DNA of 64,000 nucleotides from positions 4,184 to 68,183 of IMG/VR virus record IMGVR_UViG_3300022562_000870. One strand, given 5' to 3'. The position numbers and the translations under genes were made by a program. This DNA comes from a virus. Its lineage: Duplodnaviria > Heunggongvirae > Uroviricota > Caudoviricetes. Of this stretch, positions 4,120-63,732 are shown piece after piece. The stretch's first letter is position 1; the number at the start of each line of letters is the position of its first letter. The notes under the pieces were generated by a model. The model did not search any database, was not told the origin of the DNA, and was given only the letters and a program-made list of their open reading frames with translations.

Positions 4120-4320
4120 TAGTAATGTCCACCGTGCTTTGACGGCAAGTAGGCGAGCAGTTTCTCAAAAGTACCTACGGCGTAGGGAAAATAAATCTGG
4201 CTTTAAAGGGTTGTAGCCCCGTAGTCGAATATACCTGAGCATATGACAATGAGTACAAAGGCCAAGGAAAGTTGTTGTCTGACTGACGAACAGACCATCC
4301 AAATTTATTAAAGGTGAAAA
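4120..4320 (+). ncRNA. candidate structured noncoding region (unassigned)
   Basis: About 200 nt between genes with no ORF and higher GC than the surroundings. Hairpins include GTCTGACTGACGAACAGAC. Not tRNA-like. Confidence 0.2.
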
Positions 4321-5170: not shown

Positions 5171-5644
5171 ATGAATATTTTTATTTTAGATAATAATGTT
5201 GAAACATGTGCAAAGTATCACGTCGATAAACACGTGGTAAAAATGATACTTGAATCTGCACAATTGTTGAGTACAGCTGTTAGACTTTCAGGTATCGAAG
5301 CCGGATATAATGCTACACATGTTAACCATCCTTGCAGCAAATGGGTTAGAGAGTCACTATCTAATTGGCGTTGGTTAAAAAATCTTACAGATAAATTGAA
5401 CGTTGAATATATGTACCGCTATAATAAAAATAACGGTCACAAATCGCATGGAATAGCAATGGCATTACCCGAACCGAATATACCAGATATAGGGTTAACG
5501 GCGTTTGCTTTGGCTATGCCAAATGAACATAAAGATAATGATCCTGTCAAAGCTTACAGAGATTATTATATAAACTGCAAAGGACATATAGCAGTATGGT
5601 CTAAAAGGGAAATACCAGAATGGTGGAATAACAATGCCCGGTAG
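5171..5644 (+). CDS. hypothetical protein; weak N-terminal resemblance to T4 DenV-type pyrimidine-dimer glycosylases
   Basis: The N-terminus ILDNNVETCAKYHVDKHVVKMILESAQLL loosely resembles the LVSELADQHLMAEYREL region of the Pyr_excise family. Very tentative. Confidence 0.4.
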   Translation: MNIFILDNNVETCAKYHVDKHVVKMILESAQLLSTAVRLSGIEAGYNATHVNHPCSKWVRESLSNWRWLKNLTDKLNVEYMYRYNKNNGHKSHGIAMALPEPNIPDIGLTAFALAMPNEHKDNDPVKAYRDYYINCKGHIAVWSKREIPEWWNNNAR

Positions 5645-7869: not shown

Positions 7870-8781
7870 ATGATAAAAAGATTTAAGGGTTGTTTGCTTG
7901 GATTGGCGGTAGGTGATGCTGTTGGAACGACAGTAGAATTTAAAAATCCAGATTCCTTTTTTCCAGTGGACGACATGACAGGCGGCGGTCCTTTCAAATT
8001 AGAAGCTGGACAGTGGACAGATGATACATCAATGGCGCTCTGTTTAGCTACTAGTTTAATTGAAAACGGATATGATGTAAAAGATCAAATGGACAGATAT
8101 GTTCGTTGGATGGATGAAGGATACATGTCCAGCAATGGAAGATGTTTTGATATTGGGTTCACTACACGCAATGCTTTAAATGATTATAAAGATTCTGGTG
8201 ATCCTTATAGCGGCGATAGTGGTGGATCGTTGAAAGGTAATGGTTCATTGATGCGTTTGGCACCAGTACCAATGTATTACGCAGAAGATACTGTCTTGGC
8301 CATAGAAAAATCTGGTGATAGTTCTAAGACTACACACGGCGATACGACTTGTGTAGATGCTTGCAGATTTTTTGGTGCGTTGATTGTTGGTGCGTTATTT
8401 GGTGTTGATAAAGAACGGCTATTGCGTCCATATGGTTGGATACCAGAACAGTATTGGAAGGATTCTCCTCTACATCCAGAAATAGATGAAGTCGCGGCGG
8501 GGTCTTTTAAAGTTAAAGAACCACCCTTTATTAAAGGTTCTGGATATGTTGTTAGGAGTTTAGAAGCCGCTCTGTGGGCATTCTATCATACAGACAACTT
8601 CAAAGACGCAATCCTTGATGCTGTTAACCTTGGCGATGATGCAGATACTACAGCCGCTATATGTGGTCAAATTGCTGGTGCTTATTATGGCGTTGACGAT
8701 ATACCTGAAGATTGGTTGAATAAATTAACCATGAAAGAAGAAATTGAAGAAATGGCAGTGAAGTTACATGAACACAGATAA
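7870..8781 (+). CDS. ADP-ribosylglycohydrolase family protein (DraG/ARH-like)
   Basis: N-terminal GCLLGLAVGDAVG and C-terminal DDADTTAAICGQIAGAYYG are hallmark ARH motifs. Confidence 0.7.
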   Translation: MIKRFKGCLLGLAVGDAVGTTVEFKNPDSFFPVDDMTGGGPFKLEAGQWTDDTSMALCLATSLIENGYDVKDQMDRYVRWMDEGYMSSNGRCFDIGFTTRNALNDYKDSGDPYSGDSGGSLKGNGSLMRLAPVPMYYAEDTVLAIEKSGDSSKTTHGDTTCVDACRFFGALIVGALFGVDKERLLRPYGWIPEQYWKDSPLHPEIDEVAAGSFKVKEPPFIKGSGYVVRSLEAALWAFYHTDNFKDAILDAVNLGDDADTTAAICGQIAGAYYGVDDIPEDWLNKLTMKEEIEEMAVKLHEHR

Positions 8782-9086: not shown

Positions 9087-9770
9087 ATGAAAAAGATAGT
9101 TGAAATACGTGCCGCAGAGGGCGGACAGGATAGCAAATTATTTGTCAATGATTTGGCAATCGCATACGAAAAAACCTTTTCTAAACTAGGCTGAAAGTCT
9201 ACACGCTCGTCCGAGCGAGATGGCTTCGTGTCTATTGAAGTCATCGGCAAAAATCTTAACCAATTAAAAAATGAAGCAGGCGGACATCGCATACAACGCG
9301 TTCCACCAACAGAACGTCGTGGTAGGGTGCATACGTCTACTGTAACTGTGGCTATTTTAGATGAAGCATACACAGCCAATTCTAAATATATGCTTCGTGA
9401 AGATCATCATTACTATTTTGAACCTTTTAAATCAACGGGTGCGGGTGGACAGCATAAGAACAAAACCCTTAGTGCTATCAAATGTATCCATATTCCTACT
9501 GGAATTAAGCAGGAAAGGTCAAGTAGGGATCAGCATAAAAACAAACGCGAAGCGCGGATTGCAGTCGATAAAATGCTGGATTCTTTGATAATTGAAGAGC
9601 AAAATGCTAATCAGAACACAGAACGCAGTGATATGGTGGGAAGCGGTATGCGTGGTGATAAAATCAGAACATACCGTTTTCAAGAAGATATCATAATTGA
9701 CCATATTTCTGATAAAAAAGTTAATCTAAAACAAGTATTTAGGGGTAACATGGATGTGTTCTGGAAATAA
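9087..9770 (+). CDS. peptide chain release factor homolog (RF1-type PxT motif, lacks domain 1; PrfH-like) interrupted by an in-frame TGA at 9192-9194
   Basis: - RBS AGGAGA upstream of ATG at 9087.
- IRAAEGGQDSKLFVNDLAIAY matches the start of RF domain 2.
- GGHRIQRVPPTERRGRVHTS carries the PxT motif.
- STGAGGQHKNKTLSAIKCIHIPTGI carries the GGQ motif.
- Both parts are in the same frame, separated only by TGA. Confidence 0.6.
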
Positions 9771-23199: not shown

Positions 23200-23667
23200 A
23201 TGGATATTAGCTCGAAAAAATCTGGGCCTGCTGGACAGTTATCTAATTTTACACCACGGCCATTTATGTTTAAAGGTGTTGAATGTAATTCTATGGAAGG
23301 ATTATTGCAGTCTTTTAAATTCAAAGATCCTGAAATGCAAAAGCACTGTTGCACATTAGTAGGATTTAAGGCCAAAAAATTTGGTTCAAAAAAGAACTGG
23401 CAAACCACACAAACGCTTTGGTGGCAAGGTCAACCCATTAAACGCGATTCTGAAGAATATCAAAAGCTCTTAGATGAAGCGTATGAAGCGCTTTATACTA
23501 CTAATGAAAAAGCAAAGAAAACGTTGCTTTCTACAGGTAATGCTAATTTAACACACAATATTGGTAGAACAAAAACCAGTGAAACGGTTTTAACACGGCA
23601 AGAATTTTGTTCACGTTTAATGAAAATTCGCGCTAAACTAAAGGCAGAGGAATATATAAATTTTTAA
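23200..23667 (+). CDS. NADAR-domain protein (YbiA-like; candidate ADP-ribose-removing enzyme)
   Basis: SNFTPRPF...GVECNSMEGLLQSFKF...WQGQP is the NADAR/DUF1768 pattern. Confidence 0.55.
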   Translation: MDISSKKSGPAGQLSNFTPRPFMFKGVECNSMEGLLQSFKFKDPEMQKHCCTLVGFKAKKFGSKKNWQTTQTLWWQGQPIKRDSEEYQKLLDEAYEALYTTNEKAKKTLLSTGNANLTHNIGRTKTSETVLTRQEFCSRLMKIRAKLKAEEYINF

Positions 23668-24152
23668 TGAAATCTATTAAACCACCACAAAAATACAACC
23701 CTGAAGAAGACGAGGGCTTATCAATTTTTCTAGCAGGTTCAATATCGCAAGATACAGCCGAAAGATGGCAAGAATATGTAGAACGGCGATTCGAAAATTA
23801 TGACCATATTACATTTTTAAATCCACGACGCGATGAATGGAAAGTCTCGAAGGAAATGGAAGATGCTGCATATAAAAGATATTTTACCGAACAGGTCACG
23901 TGGGAAACAGAAAATCTTGAAGCCGCCACGAGTATTTTTATGTACTTTGATCCAAATACGGTTTCACCGATATCATTATTGGAATTGGGAACATACGGAA
24001 AAAGTGAAAAAATGATGGTTTGCTGCCCAAAAGAATATTTTAGATATTACAATGTTGAATTTTTTTGTAATTATAATGGTATAACATTTTTTGATGACTT
24101 AGAAAAATCGTTGATACATTTAGAAGATTTAATCAAACTTTATATAATATGA
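23667..24152 (+). CDS. nucleoside 2-deoxyribosyltransferase-like protein
   Basis: IFLAGSISQD Rossmann-like motif, typical of the NDT/Rcl fold. Confidence 0.45.
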   Translation: MKSIKPPQKYNPEEDEGLSIFLAGSISQDTAERWQEYVERRFENYDHITFLNPRRDEWKVSKEMEDAAYKRYFTEQVTWETENLEAATSIFMYFDPNTVSPISLLELGTYGKSEKMMVCCPKEYFRYYNVEFFCNYNGITFFDDLEKSLIHLEDLIKLYII

Positions 24153-25324: not shown

Positions 25325-25783
25325 ATGAAAAGTTTAATTTATCTTGCTGGGCCTATTTCTGGTCTAAGCTATGGCGAAAGCACGGATTGGCGTCAATATG
25401 TTATGGATAATTTACATGATGATGTAGAAGGATTGTCACCTTTAAGGGCAAAAGGATATTTGAAAGGAATAGAAACATTAGCCGATCAATATCGCGATTG
25501 GCCACTTTCTACACAAAAGGGAATATATGCACGCGATAAATGGGATTGTGAACGTGCGGATGTAGTTTTAGTCAACCTCTTGGGGGCTAAAACCGTTAGT
25601 ATAGGTACGGTTATGGAAATTGCATGGGCTGCACAGAAGAATACACCAATTGTTCTGGTTATGGAAGAAGATAATATCCATCAGCACGCCATGTTAAATG
25701 AAGCATGTCCGTTTATCGTAGATAGTTTGGAAAAGGCAATAGATGTTCTACACGCATTATTAATTGCGTACGATCATGAATGA
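25325..25783 (+). CDS. nucleoside 2-deoxyribosyltransferase-like protein (second copy)
   Basis: IYLAGPISG motif. Preceded by a TTGTCA-17-TATATT promoter-like sequence at 25263-25291. Confidence 0.45.
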   Translation: MKSLIYLAGPISGLSYGESTDWRQYVMDNLHDDVEGLSPLRAKGYLKGIETLADQYRDWPLSTQKGIYARDKWDCERADVVLVNLLGAKTVSIGTVMEIAWAAQKNTPIVLVMEEDNIHQHAMLNEACPFIVDSLEKAIDVLHALLIAYDHE

Positions 25784-28954: not shown

Positions 28955-29803
28955 ATGTCGATTATAAAACATGGTGATTGTCTTGATGTTTTAAAAGAAT
29001 ATCCAGACGATTATTTTGATTTGATATTAACATCACCACCATACGCCGATGCACGCGTAAAAACTTATGGTGGCGTTCCCCCAGATGAATATGTAGAATG
29101 GTTCCTACCACGCTCTGAAGAATTTTTGCGCGTATTAAAACCCACAGGAACTTTTATTCTTAATATTAAAGAAAAGACGGTCAATTCAGAACGAAGCACC
29201 TATGTTATAGAACTAATTCTTGAACTACGCAAACAAGGATGGTTATGGACAGAAGAGTTTATCTGGCATAAAACAACAGCATTTCCTGGAAAATGGCCAA
29301 ACAGATTTCGAGATGCATGGGAAAGATGTTTACAGTTTAATAAAAATAAAAAATTTAAAATGAATCAAGAAGCTGTAATGGTGCCAATCGGTGATTGGGC
29401 AACAAAAACTTCAAGACTTACATCTTTAACAAAAAACGATAAAGTACGCCATGATTCTTCAACCAATAGTGGTTTTAGTAAAAAAACCGCCAATTGGGTT
29501 AATAGGGATATGGTATATCCAACCAATGTTTTACATTTAGCACCAGAAACTGGAAATCGTAAACATAGCGCAGTATTTCCTAAGAAAATACCAGAATGGT
29601 TTATTAAATTATTTACCGATGAAGGTGATATGGTATTAGACCCATTTGTTGGTTCTGGAACTACATGTCACGTAGCAGATGAACTTAACCGTGAATCTGT
29701 TGGTATAGATATTCTTGAAGAAAATATAGAATTAGCTGACAATAAAATGAAAAATTGTGATCTCTTAACATTTGACATAGAAGAAAAAGAAAATGAAAAT
29801 TGA
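28955..29803 (+). CDS. DNA methyltransferase (N6-adenine or N4-cytosine, beta-class)
   Basis: TSPPYAD (motif IV) precedes DPFVGSGTT (motif I). Confidence 0.75.
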   Translation: MSIIKHGDCLDVLKEYPDDYFDLILTSPPYADARVKTYGGVPPDEYVEWFLPRSEEFLRVLKPTGTFILNIKEKTVNSERSTYVIELILELRKQGWLWTEEFIWHKTTAFPGKWPNRFRDAWERCLQFNKNKKFKMNQEAVMVPIGDWATKTSRLTSLTKNDKVRHDSSTNSGFSKKTANWVNRDMVYPTNVLHLAPETGNRKHSAVFPKKIPEWFIKLFTDEGDMVLDPFVGSGTTCHVADELNRESVGIDILEENIELADNKMKNCDLLTFDIEEKENEN

Positions 29804-30641
29804 TAAAAAACGAGTTGACTTGCGGTTGCAAGAATTCAGAATGAATAGAATAGCAGCAATTGAAAAATTTAATATTGAAGAAAAATTAGCAAGGGTAGAT
29901 ATGAGTTTATACAGAATCAACGGTATACTTACTATAAAAGACTTTGCTAAAAAAATGGTAAAAGACTGGTACGCAAGGAATACAGAAACAGAACATGGAC
30001 ATGTTATGGAACATATTGCAACATTGACAGTGGAAGAAAATTTTAAAGTTTTGGATGTTCCACAAAGTGAAAAATGTAGTTTTGATATTTTATTCACCGT
30101 AGAAGATAGTAATGGTCGAACAATGTTAACTGGCTTACAAGTTAAAGCAGGTGAAAATAGTCAAAATTGTCAAAACATGGATGGATATAAGGGTGATGTT
30201 ATTAAATTTAACAAAAAATATAAACACGAATATGATAATGTAATGTGCATAAAAGGATCTTGTCGCGGTACTTCTAACGGGTTCATATTAGTAGACGGTA
30301 TACCTAAACATTTAAGTATAAAGTTGGCTGGACAGGAATTCTGGAAGAAAATAAGTGGTGGCAGTGATGACTTCTTTGAAAAAGTGTATGGTCTTGTAGA
30401 TTATTTTTTCGCAGAACATGAAGAAGTAATCGACGAAAAGTTAAATGAATTAATTTCTAATGTTTGTAACTATTTAAGTGCTAACTGCTCAAACGATGGT
30501 GTACATATAGATCCATTAAAAGTTTTATCATACACATCAGTTAGTAAATTACCCAACCCCGCACTATTAGATAATGCGCTTGCGGCTATTGAAAACCCCG
30601 ACGCATTTTATGAAAGAGAAAGTCTTATTTCATATGAATAA
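29793..30641 (+). CDS. hypothetical protein between two methyltransferases (nuclease or anti-restriction function possible)
   Basis: Position only. Weak D...E.K spacing (FDILFTVED...LQVK). Confidence 0.35.
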   Translation: MKIDKKRVDLRLQEFRMNRIAAIEKFNIEEKLARVDMSLYRINGILTIKDFAKKMVKDWYARNTETEHGHVMEHIATLTVEENFKVLDVPQSEKCSFDILFTVEDSNGRTMLTGLQVKAGENSQNCQNMDGYKGDVIKFNKKYKHEYDNVMCIKGSCRGTSNGFILVDGIPKHLSIKLAGQEFWKKISGGSDDFFEKVYGLVDYFFAEHEEVIDEKLNELISNVCNYLSANCSNDGVHIDPLKVLSYTSVSKLPNPALLDNALAAIENPDAFYERESLISYE

Positions 30642-31212
30642 ACCCACCATACAAGATTTTATAGATATCGACGACCTTCCACCAAACGAAGAACAAATGA
30701 TGAAGGCGGCTGGTTTCACACATGATAGTGTGGACAATCAGTCTGTAGATTGGTATACACCTAAATGGATATTTGATGAATTAGATATAAAATTTGATCT
30801 CGATCCTTGTCATCCAAAACAAAGAATTCCATGGATTCCCGTAGAAAAGCATTATAGTTTAGAAGATGATGGATTAAAATCACCATGGTTTGGAAACGTT
30901 TGGTTAAATCCTCCATATGGTAAGGAAACTAGTATATGGTTAGAAAAGATGCATAACCATCGTAATGGTATAGCATTAGTTTTTGCCAGAACGGATTGTC
31001 AATGGTATCACAATTATGTTACACGGGCAGATGGATTACTTTTTCTTAAAGGTAGAATTAGGTTCGTAGATGGTCTTGGTGTTACAAAGGGTGGTGGTGC
31101 TGGCAGTGGATCTATGCTCATATCATGGGGTGAAGCTAATACTAATAGGTTAAAACAAATATCCGACCGGGGTCATTTTATACCCCTTGACGAATTGAAA
31201 AAAATAAGGTAA
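30634..31212 (+). CDS. DNA N6-adenine methyltransferase, phage Dam-like
   Basis: DWYTPKWIF and NPPYG motifs. The start was refined to ATG at 30634, overlapping the upstream stop. Confidence 0.65.
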   Translation: MNKPTIQDFIDIDDLPPNEEQMMKAAGFTHDSVDNQSVDWYTPKWIFDELDIKFDLDPCHPKQRIPWIPVEKHYSLEDDGLKSPWFGNVWLNPPYGKETSIWLEKMHNHRNGIALVFARTDCQWYHNYVTRADGLLFLKGRIRFVDGLGVTKGGGAGSGSMLISWGEANTNRLKQISDRGHFIPLDELKKIR

Positions 31213-34660: not shown

Positions 34661-35869
34661 ATGAATGAATATCAGCAAAAAATATATGACGATTTAATGC
34701 AACTTGTTGAAAACAATGAAGCATTTTACTACGTTGACCAACACATATTTGATGGTTTATCATCATCTATTGATACAGTATATCGTATTTTCTTATATCG
34801 ATTAGCTTCTTACACAGACTTTCTGAATCCATCGGCGCTGGAATGTCGTGGTATTACTTTTGAAGTAACTGAAGAAGGTAAGAATGCACAACCAATTCGC
34901 TTGGCGGCAATGCCAATGGAAAAGTTTTTCAATTTACATGAAAATCCATTCACTATGGATTTAGATCTTTCCGCTGTTGAAAGTGTAATGTTGAAAGCTG
35001 ATGGTAGTTTAATATCGGCTTTCAAACACAATGGTTATCTACGGCTTAAGACGAAAGGTTCGTTGTGGTCTGACCAAGCAATGGCGGCAATGGGGTGGTT
35101 ACACGATCATGAAAATCAACCACTACTTAATGAAATAACATTATTAGTTAACCATGGCTTTACCGTCAATATGGAATGGTGTGCGCCAGATAATCGTATT
35201 GTTATCAATTACCAAGAACCAAAGTTAGTAATTCTTAATATCCGCAATAATGAAGATGGTAGTTATGTTCGCTATCCTGATCGCGTAGATGAAGGTTTTG
35301 TTGAAATACACAAACATTGGATAGAATTGGAACAACCAAAAGATATCAATGAATTTGTTAAGCAAATACCTTCTATGAAAGATGTGGAAGGTTATGTTGT
35401 ATGCATCAGTTCTGGTCAACCTCATGCCAAAACTCAATTGGCTAACGGTGATTGTTGCATTGGTATCCAGCATGTTAAAATAAAGACTGAATGGTACTTG
35501 ACACAACATCGTGCAAAAGATTCTATCGATAGCCCACGGCGTTTGTTCGAAGCTGTCTTGGAAGAAGCTACTGATGACTTAAAATCTTTATTCCATGATA
35601 ATCCATATGTCTTGAATAAAATCGACGAAATGGAAAAATTCGTTGAAGTACGATACAACCACTTGGTTGATACTGTCGAACGTTTCTATGAACGCAATAA
35701 AGGATTAGAACGCAAAGAATATGCTATTCTTGGACAACAGGAAATGGATCGTATGCAGTTCGGTTTAGCTATGATGAAGTATTTGGATAAGCCTGTTTCT
35801 TACAAAGATGCTATGAAAAAGGCTTGGAAACATTATGGCCTTAAAGATGCAGTAAAGGAAGAAGAATGA
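34661..35869 (+). CDS. RNA ligase, T4 Rnl1-like
   Basis: Nucleotidyltransferase motif I in LKADGSLI (KxDGSL as at T4 Rnl1 K99). Size about 400 aa. Confidence 0.6.
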   Translation: MNEYQQKIYDDLMQLVENNEAFYYVDQHIFDGLSSSIDTVYRIFLYRLASYTDFLNPSALECRGITFEVTEEGKNAQPIRLAAMPMEKFFNLHENPFTMDLDLSAVESVMLKADGSLISAFKHNGYLRLKTKGSLWSDQAMAAMGWLHDHENQPLLNEITLLVNHGFTVNMEWCAPDNRIVINYQEPKLVILNIRNNEDGSYVRYPDRVDEGFVEIHKHWIELEQPKDINEFVKQIPSMKDVEGYVVCISSGQPHAKTQLANGDCCIGIQHVKIKTEWYLTQHRAKDSIDSPRRLFEAVLEEATDDLKSLFHDNPYVLNKIDEMEKFVEVRYNHLVDTVERFYERNKGLERKEYAILGQQEMDRMQFGLAMMKYLDKPVSYKDAMKKAWKHYGLKDAVKEEE

Positions 35870-43685: not shown

Positions 43686-43771
43686 CTGCGTGTAGCCGGG
43701 TAACTTGGTAGCCCCCCTCGCTTGGAACGAGGTGTCGAAAGACCTTGCTGGTTCGAATCCAGTTGCGCAGA
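43686..43771 (+). tRNA. tRNA, atypical type-II-like; anticodon loop CTTGGAA (UGG, Pro?); CCA encoded
   Basis: Acceptor CTGCGTG/TGCGCAG. Anticodon stem CCTCG/CGAGG. Long variable hairpin GTCGAAAGAC. T-arm GCTGG-TTCGAAT-CCAGT. D-arm not resolved. Confidence 0.45.
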
Positions 43772-43787
43772 CCAATATACATTTAAA

Positions 43788-43870
43788 TGGGAAGTAGGAA
43801 AATTGGCAACCCCACCTGACTTTGAATCAGGCGTCGAAAGACATTGTGCGTTCGAGTCGCACCTTCCCAG
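43788..43870 (+). tRNA. tRNA, atypical type-II-like; anticodon loop CTTTGAA (UUG, Gln?); CCA encoded
   Basis: Acceptor TGGGAAG/CTTCCCA. Anticodon stem CCTGA/TCAGG. Variable hairpin GTCGAAAGAC. T-arm GTGCG-TTCGAGT-CGCAC. Confidence 0.45.
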
Positions 43871-43884
43871 CCAATTAAAAATAT

Positions 43885-44057: not shown

Positions 44058-44111
44058 CCAAATTTTGTCTGACCTAACACATCGATCACTGTTAGGATTT
44101 ACACAAGTAGT

Positions 44112-44183
44112 AACCATGTGATGTACTTGGAAGCATGGCCCCCTCTAAAGGGGTTTGTATAGGTTCGAATCCTATTGTGGTAA
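44112..44183 (+). tRNA. suppressor-type tRNA with anticodon CUA (reads UAG); no CCA encoded
   Basis: - U8 present.
- D-stem ATGT/GCAT with loop ACTTGGAA.
- Anticodon stem GCCCC/GGGGT with loop CTCTAAA.
- 4-nt variable loop.
- T-arm ATAGG-TTCGAAT-CCTAT.
- Acceptor AACCATG/TGTGGTA with an A1/A72 mismatch. Confidence 0.6.
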
Positions 44184-44246
44184 AAAATGTATTAGTTGGT
44201 ATTCATTCGCGATGAAAAATCCAACCGACAAAATTCAAATTCTATG

Positions 44247-46039: not shown

Positions 46040-46111
46040 GATAAGTTTTGGCAGTGGGGCAGATTGAATATGCGGCTGATTGTCTATCAGCATTAAGAGG
46101 GTTTGATTCCC
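46040..46111 (+). tRNA. tRNA, anticodon loop TTGTCTA (GUC, Asp?); CCA encoded
   Basis: Acceptor GGCAGTG/CACTGTC. Anticodon stem GCTGA/TCAGC. T-arm GAGGG-TTTGATT-CCCTT. D-stem poor. Confidence 0.45.
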
Positions 46112-46119
46112 TTCACTGT

Positions 46120-46187
46120 CGCCAAATATACTATTGTAGTTTAACAAAAATACCTGGAGTAGTCTGGGAGATGTGGGTGAAAATCCT
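46120..46187 (+). tRNA. tRNA-like element with an atypical T-loop (TGAAAAT) and unresolved anticodon; CCA encoded
   Basis: Perfect acceptor ACTATTG/CAATAGT. T-stem GTGGG/CCTGC formed with G-U pairs. Confidence 0.3.
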
Positions 46188-59718: not shown

Positions 59719-60744
59719 ATGAACAAGCTATTAACACGTGATGATTTTCGCAATAGCGTCTTTGAACGTGATCGTCACACGTGTGTATTTTGTAAAAACC
59801 CTGCCGTAGATGCGCATCATATTATAGAACGACGCCTGTGGCCTGATGGTGGCTACTATTTAAATAACGGTGCTTCGGTTTGTGAAGAACATCACCTTGC
59901 TTGTGAAATGACAACAATGTCTGTTGAAGAAGTTCGTGAAGCATGTGGCATTGAAAAACCTATTATACCGCCACATTTATATGATGACCAAATTTACGAT
60001 AAATGGGGTAACATAGTATTACCTAATGGACAGCGCCTTAAAGGTGAATTGTTCTTCGATGAAAGTGTTCAAAAGATACTTGAAAAGGGTGGTGTATTAC
60101 CACTATTCACTGGTTACGTAAAATACCCAAGAACATATCACCTTCCTTGGTCACAAGGATTACACGATGATGATCGAATGATGAACAATGTAGATGCCTT
60201 CATTGGGCAGCGCGTAATCGTAACCGAAAAACTTGATGGTGAAAATACTACACTGTATTATGATCATAATCATGCGCGTTCTATCGATAGTGGTGGACAT
60301 GCTAGTCGTGATTGGGTTAAAAATTTCTGGTCACAATTTAATTTTGAAATTCCTGAAGATTGGCGCGTATGTGGTGAAAATATGTATGCGGAACATTCTA
60401 TACCTTATAACGACCTAAAATCTTATTTTTATGGATTCTCCATATGGAATGAAAAGAACATATGTTTATCGTGGGATGAAACCTTAGAATGGTTTAGGTT
60501 ATTACATCCTAAATTAGTCCATGTTCCAGTTTTATACGATGGTATATTCGATAAAAAGGTTATCGTTGACTTATGGAATGATTCGATGTATGATACTTGT
60601 GAAGGGTACGTTATGCGCGTAGCTGATTCTTTTTCTATGAATGAATTTAGGTTCAAAGTGGGAAAGTTTGTTCGCAAAGACCATATCAGAACTACACCGC
60701 ATTGGATGCACGGCAAACCCATAACAGTTAATAAATTGAAATAA
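59719..60744 (+). CDS. HNH nuclease domain fused to an ATP-dependent RNA/DNA ligase-like nucleotidyltransferase
   Basis: - N-terminus: HTCVFCKNPAVDAHHIIERR...CEEHH (HNH).
- C-terminus: motif I VIVTEKLDGEN (KxDGxN), motif IV EGYVMRV, motif V FKVGKFVRK. Confidence 0.55.
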   Translation: MNKLLTRDDFRNSVFERDRHTCVFCKNPAVDAHHIIERRLWPDGGYYLNNGASVCEEHHLACEMTTMSVEEVREACGIEKPIIPPHLYDDQIYDKWGNIVLPNGQRLKGELFFDESVQKILEKGGVLPLFTGYVKYPRTYHLPWSQGLHDDDRMMNNVDAFIGQRVIVTEKLDGENTTLYYDHNHARSIDSGGHASRDWVKNFWSQFNFEIPEDWRVCGENMYAEHSIPYNDLKSYFYGFSIWNEKNICLSWDETLEWFRLLHPKLVHVPVLYDGIFDKKVIVDLWNDSMYDTCEGYVMRVADSFSMNEFRFKVGKFVRKDHIRTTPHWMHGKPITVNKLK

Positions 60745-63312: not shown

Positions 63313-63732
63313 ATGTGGCACACCAGTACTGGTATAATCAAATACGATCCGCCTCGACCGGGTATGAAGCGTCGTACAGATTGGTGGGCAATCCTTCAAA
63401 TTGATAGAGAGATTACTCGCTATTATCGTTGGTGGGTAATGAAAGAAAAATGGATTGACTTGTGTCAACCTTCATGGGATGCACACGTTTCAATTATCCG
63501 TGGCGAAAAACCCCCCGAAGATAAAATGCACCTTTGGAAGAAATATGACGGCCAACGGGTTGATTTTAAATACAAACATGACGTTCGTCGAAGTGGCGAT
63601 ACCACAGGTTGGGATAGACCAAGCCATTACTGGTTTGTTGAAGTAGATTGTCCCCTATTGATTGACATTCGCAAGGAATTAGGTTATCCTTGTAATTGGA
63701 AACTGCATTTAACAATCGGTAGAACGTGGTAA
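63313..63732 (+). CDS. hypothetical protein
   Basis: ORF with no recognised family. Confidence 0.35.
   Translation: MWHTSTGIIKYDPPRPGMKRRTDWWAILQIDREITRYYRWWVMKEKWIDLCQPSWDAHVSIIRGEKPPEDKMHLWKKYDGQRVDFKYKHDVRRSGDTTGWDRPSHYWFVEVDCPLLIDIRKELGYPCNWKLHLTIGRTW

Follow-up and report, generated by a model that had tools for sequence, protein, structure and literature searches.

A predicted HNH nuclease fused to a LigB-type ligase domain in a Caudoviricetes genome and in giant-phage and megaplasmid relatives

Background

LigB (DR_B0100) of Deinococcus radiodurans reacts with ATP to give an AMP adduct, and the K40A substitution abolishes the adduct (Blasius et al. 2007, PMC1997131). In the same work the protein sealed no nicked DNA, nicked DNA-RNA hybrid, single-stranded RNA or double-stranded DNA ends, either alone or with proteins of its operon; the authors noted that LigB is without a conventional DNA-binding motif and that a partner or a special substrate is probably required. 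The Shuman laboratory could not show end joining by LigB (PMC5397189). This paper concerns a viral gene which joins a ligase domain of the LigB type to an N-terminal HNH nuclease module in a single polypeptide of 341 amino acids (aa). It lies in a stretch of 64,000 nucleotides from a Caudoviricetes virus (IMG/VR record IMGVR_UViG_3300022562_000870, positions 4,184 to 68,183), referred to below as the window.

LigB consists of an adenylation domain alone. Its operon has the order ligase, microbial PARG and HD plus P-loop kinase, and a further ligase gene, for DraRnl (DR_B0094), is found a few kb away. An N-terminal HNH fusion in ligases of jumbo phages, there called 'Rnl2-family', was described by Iyer et al. 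2021 (Viruses, PMC7824862), who cite Burroughs & Aravind 2016; the mention is a single comparative-genomics sentence without experiments. These HNH-fused jumbo-phage ligases, represented by PHROG 24030, belong to one family with the window protein, share its architecture and show no structural difference from it.

Results and discussion

One polypeptide with three conserved parts

The fusion gene is a single unbroken frame, as is evident from the listing of open reading frames (ORFs) and from the sequence, and its product is made up of an HNH module, a middle region and a ligase domain (Table 1). The AlphaFold2 model of the full-length protein is compact and confident (predicted local distance difference test (pLDDT) 91.3, predicted template modelling score (pTM) 0.85). 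Mean pairwise identity in an alignment of 41 homologs (65-84% identity) reaches 71% in the HNH module, 69% in the middle region and 64% in the ligase domain. C22, C25, D31, H33, H34, N50, C55, H58 and H59 of the HNH module are invariant in this set, as are K171, D173, G174, E175, R187, E220, E295, G296, Y297, K316 and R319 of the ligase part, so that neither domain varies at any putative catalytic or metal-binding residue. The domain match scores of the protein lie far outside chance, with PHROG 24030 matching aa 3-339 over profile positions 2-339 of 342 (E 1.1e-140).

A preliminary description of the locus had proposed a single polypeptide with an HNH metal-binding core in its first 70 residues and, behind it, an ATP-dependent ligase with motifs I (KLDGEN), IV (EGYVMR) and V (KVGKFVRK). 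The intact ORF, the full-length homologs and the end-to-end PHROG match bear this out; the core residues were located at aa 22-59, and the three motifs are all present and conserved at the places proposed. A frameshift or an internal start that would divide the product into two separate proteins is not seen, as the frame is unbroken and the N-termini of homologs align.

Table 1. Positions of the fusion gene, its parts and other genes discussed, in window coordinates
Feature	Position	Strand	Remarks
HNH / LigB-type ligase fusion gene	59719..60744	+	341 aa, ATG start, stop codon 60742-60744
HNH (beta-beta-alpha metal) nuclease module (predicted), aa 1-65	59719..59913	+	core residues at nt 59782-59895
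Conserved middle region, aa 66-134	59914..60120	+	invariant P84, H86, Y88, D90, D94-K-W-G-N98, R106, G109, E110
LigB/DR_B0100-type adenylyltransferase (ligase) domain, aa 135-341	60121..60741	+	begins KYPRTYHLPWS
K171 codon, predicted AMP-accepting lysine	60229..60231	+	aligns with K40 of D. radiodurans LigB
Motif I, K171-LDGEN	60229-60246	+	present, conserved
Motif IV, E295-GYVMR	60601-60618	+	present, conserved
Motif V region, K313-VGKFVRK	60655-60678	+	K316..R319 invariant
Upstream ORF, 116 aa	59354..59704	+	function not assigned; ends 15 nt before fusion gene
Candidate 2H-type phosphoesterase, 139 aa	63313..63732	+	two H-x-S/T motifs (DAHVS, KLHLT); 2.6 kb downstream of fusion gene
T4 Rnl1-type RNA ligase, separate gene	34661..35869	+	PF09511 E 5.9e-26, PF20819 E 1e-20

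The ligase domain groups with LigB

The ligase part matches Pfam PF09414 (RNA_ligase) at 106.6 bits, against a gathering cutoff of 27 (E 2e-30; aa 165-314, profile positions 2-170 of 171). In addition to the motifs in Table 1, R187 represents motif Ia and E220 motif III, and motif V reads K-F-V-R instead of the classic K-x-K. In Foldseek comparisons the RNA ligases come first (Naegleria Rnl5, E 1.9e-6; archaeal Rnl3, ~1.4e-5; T4 Rnl2, 3e-5; Trl1, 5e-4; Rnl1, 1e-3) and DNA ligases rank after them, at 1.7e-3 and weaker. By sequence no solved ligase chain was found even at E ≤ 10.

A search of a plasmid collection showed that aa 134-341 align with the whole of a 210-aa 'RNA ligase family protein' (residues 3-205) encoded by the D. 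radiodurans megaplasmid MP1, with 46% identity over 208 aa (E 4e-61). From its position and operon this protein is DR_B0100, that is, LigB or DdrP. A four-way alignment of the LigB clade has a mean column identity of 65%, and the hallmarks of the clade, a KYPRTxHLPWS start and a K-x-VR-x2-H-x2-T-x2-HW end, are both found in the window protein. Proteins of 210 aa and of 340 aa interleave by score in a profile search, and on their sequences fused and unfused forms make up one tight LigB-type family. Both LigB and the window protein match PF09414 and both have relatives tied to HD-Pnk genes. The window protein differs in its 134 extra N-terminal residues, which make it a fused member of the clade rather than an adenylation domain alone, and in having no PARG and HD-Pnk partners adjacent to it.

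Rnl2, Rnl3 and Rnl5 had been put forward in the preliminary description as families for comparison; the domain falls outside all three. Rnl5 enzymes (DraRnl and NgrRnl), which are nick-sealing RNA ligases, have the same order of parts: the accessory domain is N-terminal, the adenylyltransferase is C-terminal and no part follows motif V. NgrRnl is also the best Foldseek match. However, the NCBIfam equivalog model of Rnl5, TIGR02306, scores 16.2 bits against a cutoff of 151, and DraRnl is only 25% identical over 159 aa. The N-terminal domain of Rnl5 is an OB-like fold, whereas the N-terminus of the window protein folds as an HNH module. T4 Rnl2, the prototype of PF09414, shares the Pfam family and the nucleotidyltransferase fold. 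It has a C-terminal helical domain after the adenylyltransferase domain, which is absent from the window protein, as this stops 21 residues past the motif V region; solved Rnl2 chains were not matched by sequence. Rnl1 was rejected as PF09511 and PF20819 were both unmatched at E ≤ 1. The fusion ligase is best assigned to the LigB/DR_B0100 clade, outside all characterized RNA ligase classes.

Inteins were seen in ligase motif I of five homologs (P0242, P0264, P0305, P0311 and P0294), inserted directly after KMDGE. The first residue of the insert is Cys and its end is VHN, followed by Cys. Several of these homologs are of ~700 aa and have LAGLIDADG-type blocks (LLGDGSL, WYMDDGS), while one of 530 aa is shorter and is without them.

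The HNH module and the middle region

The core of the HNH module reads C22-VF-C25, D31-A-H33-H34, N49-N50 and C55-E-E-H58-H59. C22, C25, C55 and H58 probably form a structural zinc site, and D31, H33, H34, N50 and H59 are the probable catalytic set; by analogy with other HNH enzymes, H34 would be the general base and H33, H59 and D31 metal ligands. The zinc knuckle is of the form C-x2-C ... C-x2-H, and the D-A-H-H ... N ... H-H set aligns with the HH and C-EE-HH of IscB. HNH families of PHROGs match the N-terminal part with a best E of 7.6e-7, the IscB HNH family of NCBIfam matches at E 0.006, and IscB is found among PDB sequences at E 1e-3. No Pfam HNH model (PF01844 and relatives) matched the fusion protein at E ≤ 1; for one homolog, P0186, a PF01844 match is precomputed. 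The fold, the Cys/His zinc site and the His, Asn and His residues place the module in the HNH superfamily, with predicted nuclease activity. The HNH domains of IscB, Cas9, McrA and phage GVE2, which are DNA nucleases, are found inside other architectures and none of them is fused to a ligase.

The middle region, in which a YDKWGN motif is invariant, has pLDDT values above 90. It gave no structural match past the HNH core and no known homolog by sequence or fold. It is missing from ligase-only relatives, whose alignment with the fusion begins at aa 133-136. When aa 1-134 were searched against 1.84 billion cluster representatives, 121 clusters were matched at E ≤ 1e-30 and 377 at E ≤ 1e-10. By the company they keep in these proteins, the HNH module and the middle region behave as a single unit.

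A separate ORF of 212 aa (1758-2396), directly upstream of a tRNA-Lys gene, also has a weak HNH match (PF01844, E 6e-4) and is possibly a free-standing homing endonuclease.

Distribution of the fusion

At least 7,810 clusters at 90% identity match the fusion protein in a search of 5.8 billion protein clusters, and the best 120 cluster matches have 93-100% query coverage and 64-84% identity. IMG/VR contains 205 confirmed loci; in the 80 retained, matches are mostly near full length (aa 1-341) and start mostly at aa 1-5, and contigs of 300-520 kb carry many of these 80. Full-length fusions are also encoded by isolated phages, namely Salicola SCTP-2, Ralstonia RsoM2USA, Caulobacter CcrSC, CcrBL9 and relatives, and Acinetobacter ME3, and by the archaeal virus HGTV-1. 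Identity to the window protein is 46-63% over the full length for SCTP-2, RsoM2USA, CcrSC and related phages, and ME3. Megaplasmids of 0.4-1.3 Mb carry the fusion in Variovorax, Pseudomonas, Erythrobacter, Bosea, Rhizobium and Miltoncostaea. A collection of species-representative genomes yielded 69 loci, mostly on contigs of metagenome-assembled genomes, with some in isolate genomes including complete chromosomes.

Ligase-only relatives are encoded by Bacillus cereus megaplasmids (57% identity), by phages XacN1, Atu_ph07 and Phosso and by several Firmicutes; the ligase-only match in Lak phages is short and partial. The phage collection held no DNA near-identical to the window copy, and the best protein identity, from the protein clusters, was 84%. 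The window copy is a new sequence of an already catalogued architecture. This architecture is ordinary for a giant phage: it is present in PHROGs, has an NCBI name ('RNA ligase family protein') and has been noted in published work on jumbo phages.

Several loci in cellular assemblies look like giant-phage contigs: L003/L004 (labelled Comamonas thiooxydans), L136 (Pacearchaeota, 425 kb) and L114 (Pseudobdellovibrionaceae, 330 kb). Neighbours in such 'bacterial' or 'archaeal' assemblies include TerC/TerD, thymidine kinase, Gp38-like proteins, TROVE, PTH2 and HAD_SAK.

Gene neighbourhoods

ORFs within 6 kb of the fusion gene were clustered in 88 viral loci; the counts given are raw numbers of loci, irrespective of kinship among them. 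A fixed phage partner gene was not found in these loci, as the commonest neighbour occurs in 11 and no cluster of immediate neighbours in more than five. In the genome collection a gene for an HD plus AAA_33 protein (HD-Pnk type) lies directly downstream in seven of the 69 loci; its ORF overlaps that of the HNH-ligase in L130 and is a few nucleotides away in L136. Ligase-only relatives in Deinococcus and B. cereus are likewise paired with HD-Pnk. The overlap in L130 is the same as that of ligase and HD-Pnk ORFs in the LIG/HD-Pnk/Tpt1 cluster of Runella slithyformis (Munir et al. 2018, PMC6097658), the two being compared by arrangement, whereas the window gene has neither HD-Pnk nor Tpt1 as a neighbour.

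Other related neighbourhoods contain HAD_SAK, PTH2 and TROVE in one case and Thg1 and Rnl1 in another. Further combinations are NADAR with a small AAA_33 kinase, NUDIX with HAD, and threonyl-tRNA synthetase (ThrRS) with peptidyl-tRNA hydrolases; RlaP and EF-Ts are also found. Overall, the genomic context leans loosely towards RNA repair and translation rescue.

In the window, matches of seven HD-Pnk proteins were at chance level by tblastn (E ≥ 0.33), and no HD-Pnk gene stands beside the fusion gene, which is thus not part of an HD-Pnk and ligase cassette. The protein encoded downstream at 63313-63732 is tentatively a 2H phosphoesterase, judging from its two motifs (Table 1). Its orthologs in the related phage contigs L169 and L170 (81% and 59% identical, respectively) have a weak precomputed match to PF22547 (2H-SAK) and sit 1.0-1.6 kb downstream of the HNH-ligase; the 2H candidate is a possible end-healing partner of the fusion.

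The tRNA-rich setting and the separate Rnl1-like ligase noted in the preliminary description are both confirmed, the latter by two Pfam families (Table 1) and the former by 28 tRNA genes in the window. Its suggestion that the enzyme matures atypical tRNAs is unsupported. The long tRNAs of the window (Pro, 89 nt, and Gln, 86 nt) owe their length to a variable-arm hairpin, not to an intron, and splicing of intron-bearing tRNAs was therefore rejected as a function. A role in a known anti-phage defence system was likewise rejected, since a PADLOC scan of the fusion protein gave no defence-system family at E ≤ 0.01.

Proposed function and its alternatives

The reading that we favour, as plausible rather than probable, is that the fusion serves giant phages and megaplasmids as a self-contained enzyme that processes breaks in nucleic acids, preferentially in RNA. 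K171 would react with ATP to form enzyme-AMP, as K40, the aligned residue of LigB, is reported to do. From K171 the AMP would move to a 5'-phosphate end, which would be joined to a 3'-OH. LigB-type domains have no nucleic-acid-binding part of their own; the HNH module and middle region would make up for this in cis and, because the catalytic residues of this N-terminal part are invariant, would probably also cut, in a metal-dependent manner. HNH chemistry leaves a 3'-OH and a 5'-phosphate, the two kinds of end that such ligases require. The favoured role would be the mending of RNA, including tRNA, broken in the conflict of phage and host, with end-healing helpers encoded separately (a putative 2H phosphoesterase in the window phage, HD-Pnk in relatives). 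A self-sufficient enzyme fits the viral loci because no conserved partner gene was found in the 88 examined. The preference for RNA is suggested by the Foldseek ranking of RNA ligases ahead of DNA ligases, together with the RNA- and translation-related context. We infer the substrate, the coupling of the two activities and the choice of RNA over DNA.

T4 Pnkp and Rnl1, which repair tRNA, provide a functional analogy in which a phage heals and seals broken RNA, and the window also encodes an Rnl1. The T4 system differs in that its ligase is of another family and there is no nuclease domain; a Pnkp was not found among the 50 window ORFs scanned. The preliminary description had proposed a tRNA or RNA processing or repair activity, possibly countering host anticodon nucleases. 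Its break-repair part is backed by the HD-Pnk genes at seven of 69 loci, by the synteny of the 2H candidate and by RlaP, Thg1, Rnl1 and PTH2 in related neighbourhoods. Cleavage of tRNA by the HNH module is not indicated, because the structural relatives of the module are all DNases. The idea of breaking and sealing in one chain is chemically coherent, with coupling as the part that we infer.

Several observations weigh against an RNA-directed, self-contained enzyme. Activity of the fused family is predicted from sequence, and the structural relatives of the HNH module are, as stated, all DNA nucleases. No PNK, HD or HAD gene is present among the 50 window ORFs scanned. LigB adenylylates itself without sealing standard 3'-OH/5'-PO4 substrates of RNA or DNA, as found in two laboratories, and its operon is radiation-induced and has been discussed in terms of DNA repair (PMC6300522). 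The Runella ligase-like protein, whose ORF overlaps that of the downstream HD-Pnk, also forms enzyme-AMP and seals none of the tested substrates (PMC6097658); it is likened to LigB by its described behaviour and may or may not be of the same family, no Runella protein being among the 120 best of two profile searches. Given the failed sealing, the real substrate of LigB-type ligases may be unusual.

The commonest viral neighbours are also DNA ligases, encoded 0.3-4 kb upstream of the fusion gene, of ATP type in 11 and of NAD type in eight of the 88 loci (19 together). They are found in two phage lineages in which the fusion gene stands amid replication genes, with the ATP type in one lineage and the NAD type in the other. 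Loci with these neighbours include L015, L016, L018, L020, L024, L033, L035 and L058, and L051, L052, L060-L063, L066 and L067; DNA ligases of the two types may have been swapped at the same genomic position between the two lineages.

Two further groups of proteins bear on the same question. Some of the matches to aa 1-134 are complete stand-alone HNH and middle-region proteins with lengths of 127-136 aa. Among them, P0303 (133 aa; L168 3001-3402) is encoded by an internal gene on a 10.9-kb contig, flanked by a DprA/SLOG-like gene and the gene for an RlaP nucleotidyltransferase (with one small gene between P0303 and RlaP) and with PTH2 and EF-Ts near; no ligase domain is encoded within 3 kb. 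In a second group, of ~26 clusters at 90% identity, the HNH module and middle region are conserved, whereas neither the ligase lysine nor motifs III-V survive (KLDGEN is replaced by QTNGLP, for example). Named members of this dead-ligase clade are Saprospiraceae, including Haliscomenobacter hydrossis, and further loci are L142, L143, L146, L149, L139 and L145; four members adjoin an HD-Pnk gene. The H. hydrossis copy (P0142; L158 7001-7909) stands alone and is annotated just as 'HNH endonuclease'. The existence of the dead-ligase clade and of stand-alone proteins indicates that the N-terminal part has a function independent of ligation and, because the clade retains it, that the ligase fold can be kept to serve this part as a scaffold.

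A bolder form of the favoured reading is quite unlikely. It holds that the HNH module and middle region are the missing substrate-handling partner of orphan LigB-type ligases, and that the fusion is a coupled cut-and-rejoin enzyme with a specific RNA or RNA-DNA substrate, from which it would cut away a short segment or an end that is damaged or chemically blocked; it would then reseal the substrate, and neither a kinase nor a phosphatase would be needed. If true, end healing by means of a nuclease would be new among the ligases described so far, and the failure of LigB to seal alone in vitro would be explained. The fused form provides a handle on the question of the LigB substrate, which has stood since 2007 for Deinococcus LigB and applies alike to Runella LIG (2018), as it ties a strictly conserved nuclease-type module to a LigB-type ligase in cultivable phages (CcrSC, RsoM2USA and ME3). 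The dead-ligase clade and the stand-alone HNH and middle-region proteins are two natural controls. If the two activities are coupled, the fusion would be a new phage means of mending nucleic acids cut by host defences.

Alternatively, the chain may carry two independent activities, the HNH attacking DNA of the host or of rival phages and the ligase repairing RNA, with fusion serving co-expression only. This suggestion, printed in Iyer et al. 2021 (PMC7824862), is in keeping with the DNase relatives of the HNH module and with the occurrence of both ligase-only and HNH and middle-only proteins. It is nevertheless unlikely: the linking middle region is as conserved as the two domains, the domains come together in a single packed body in the model (pTM 0.85), and an unregulated DNase joined to a repair enzyme offers no evident gain. 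Retention of a dead ligase domain by the pseudo-ligase clade also suggests that the domain contributes to HNH function.

An enzyme directed to DNA is improbable to a similar degree. Here the HNH would nick or trim DNA and the ligase would reseal DNA or ribonucleotide-ended breaks, in genome maintenance or in repair of damage inflicted by the host. The radiation-induced LigB operon would fit, as would one study, described in a review (PMC6300522), in which DNA joining by LigB was seen only with DR_B0098 and PprA present. The DNA ligase genes upstream at 11 (ATP type) and eight (NAD type) of 88 viral loci could be counted on this side too, yet the phages that encode the fusion already own a DNA ligase. 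The HNH fold is nearest to DNA nucleases, and one plasmid-borne copy lies near genes for uracil-DNA glycosylase and DprA, but many other neighbours are RNA- or translation-related. Sequence and fold both group the ligase domain with RNA ligases, and LigB alone sealed no DNA in two laboratories.

A ligase of non-conventional chemistry is more doubtful still. Such an enzyme would act on 2'-phosphate, ADP-ribosylated or otherwise blocked ends, or stop at AMP tagging, with the HNH selecting or creating the end. Adenylylation without sealing of any standard substrate, by LigB and by Runella LIG (possibly of one family), is what would be expected, although those assays may just reflect the absence of a binding partner, and the motifs for the later steps of ligation are all conserved in the fusion. 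LigB is co-operonic with a microbial PARG, and PARGs of the bacterial type free 5'-phosphate ends of ADP-ribose (PMC11833690); Tpt1 and a HIT-domain protein are encoded in the Runella cluster; and NUDIX, NADAR and ADP-ribosylglycohydrolase genes are found in some neighbourhoods and in the window. These links to ADP-ribose are loose, however, and not specific to the fused form.

Finally, despite the fact that large phages commonly carry free-standing HNH homing endonucleases, that the window has a second HNH ORF (1758-2396) and that a few related contigs have broken genes (three fragments in L022, for example), a frameshift or mis-called start merging two proteins, or a parasitic homing HNH inserted before a ligase gene, is hardly credible and is excluded in practice, because the frame is intact, homologs are full length (at least 7,810 clusters, 205 IMG/VR relatives and the whole PHROG profile) with N-termini that align, all regions are about equally constrained, and the HNH, with its invariant residues, is the most conserved region (71%) and present in 41 of 41 aligned homologs and in the 80 IMG/VR loci.

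Other features of the window

The 116-aa ORF upstream of the fusion gene matched no Pfam family; clustering shows that it is kept in the two closest relatives (L009 and L010), where it is not adjacent to the ligase. Promoter-like sites around the fusion gene are fewer than in shuffled sequences and terminator-like sites are within the shuffle range.

At 43686-43873, the tRNA-Pro(tgg) (89 nt) and tRNA-Gln(ttg) (86 nt) called by ARAGORN share the variable-arm hairpin GUCGAAAGAC, which is unusual for both types; the tRNA-Pro(tgg) call falls below the Rfam gathering score. A further tRNA (46050-46121) is found by Rfam (39.5 bits) and is absent from the ARAGORN calls. The tRNA at 44111-44184 has the anticodon CTA (amber suppressor type; ARAGORN label Pyl), and a 180-aa protein (9228-9770) has matches to the PCRF and RF-1 domains. 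Together these may hint at altered reading of stop codons.

A type II restriction-modification pair is made up of an N6_N4 DNA methylase (28955-29803) and an overlapping EcoO109I-family endonuclease (29793-30641), with a Dam-type methylase next (30574-31212). The window also has an accessory set typical of T4-like giant phages (7870-8781, 23200-23667, 5171-5644, 23667-24152 and 25325-25783), which comprises an ADP-ribosylglycohydrolase, a gp30.3/NADAR-like protein, a denV-like pyrimidine-dimer glycosylase and two nucleoside 2-deoxyribosyltransferase-like proteins.

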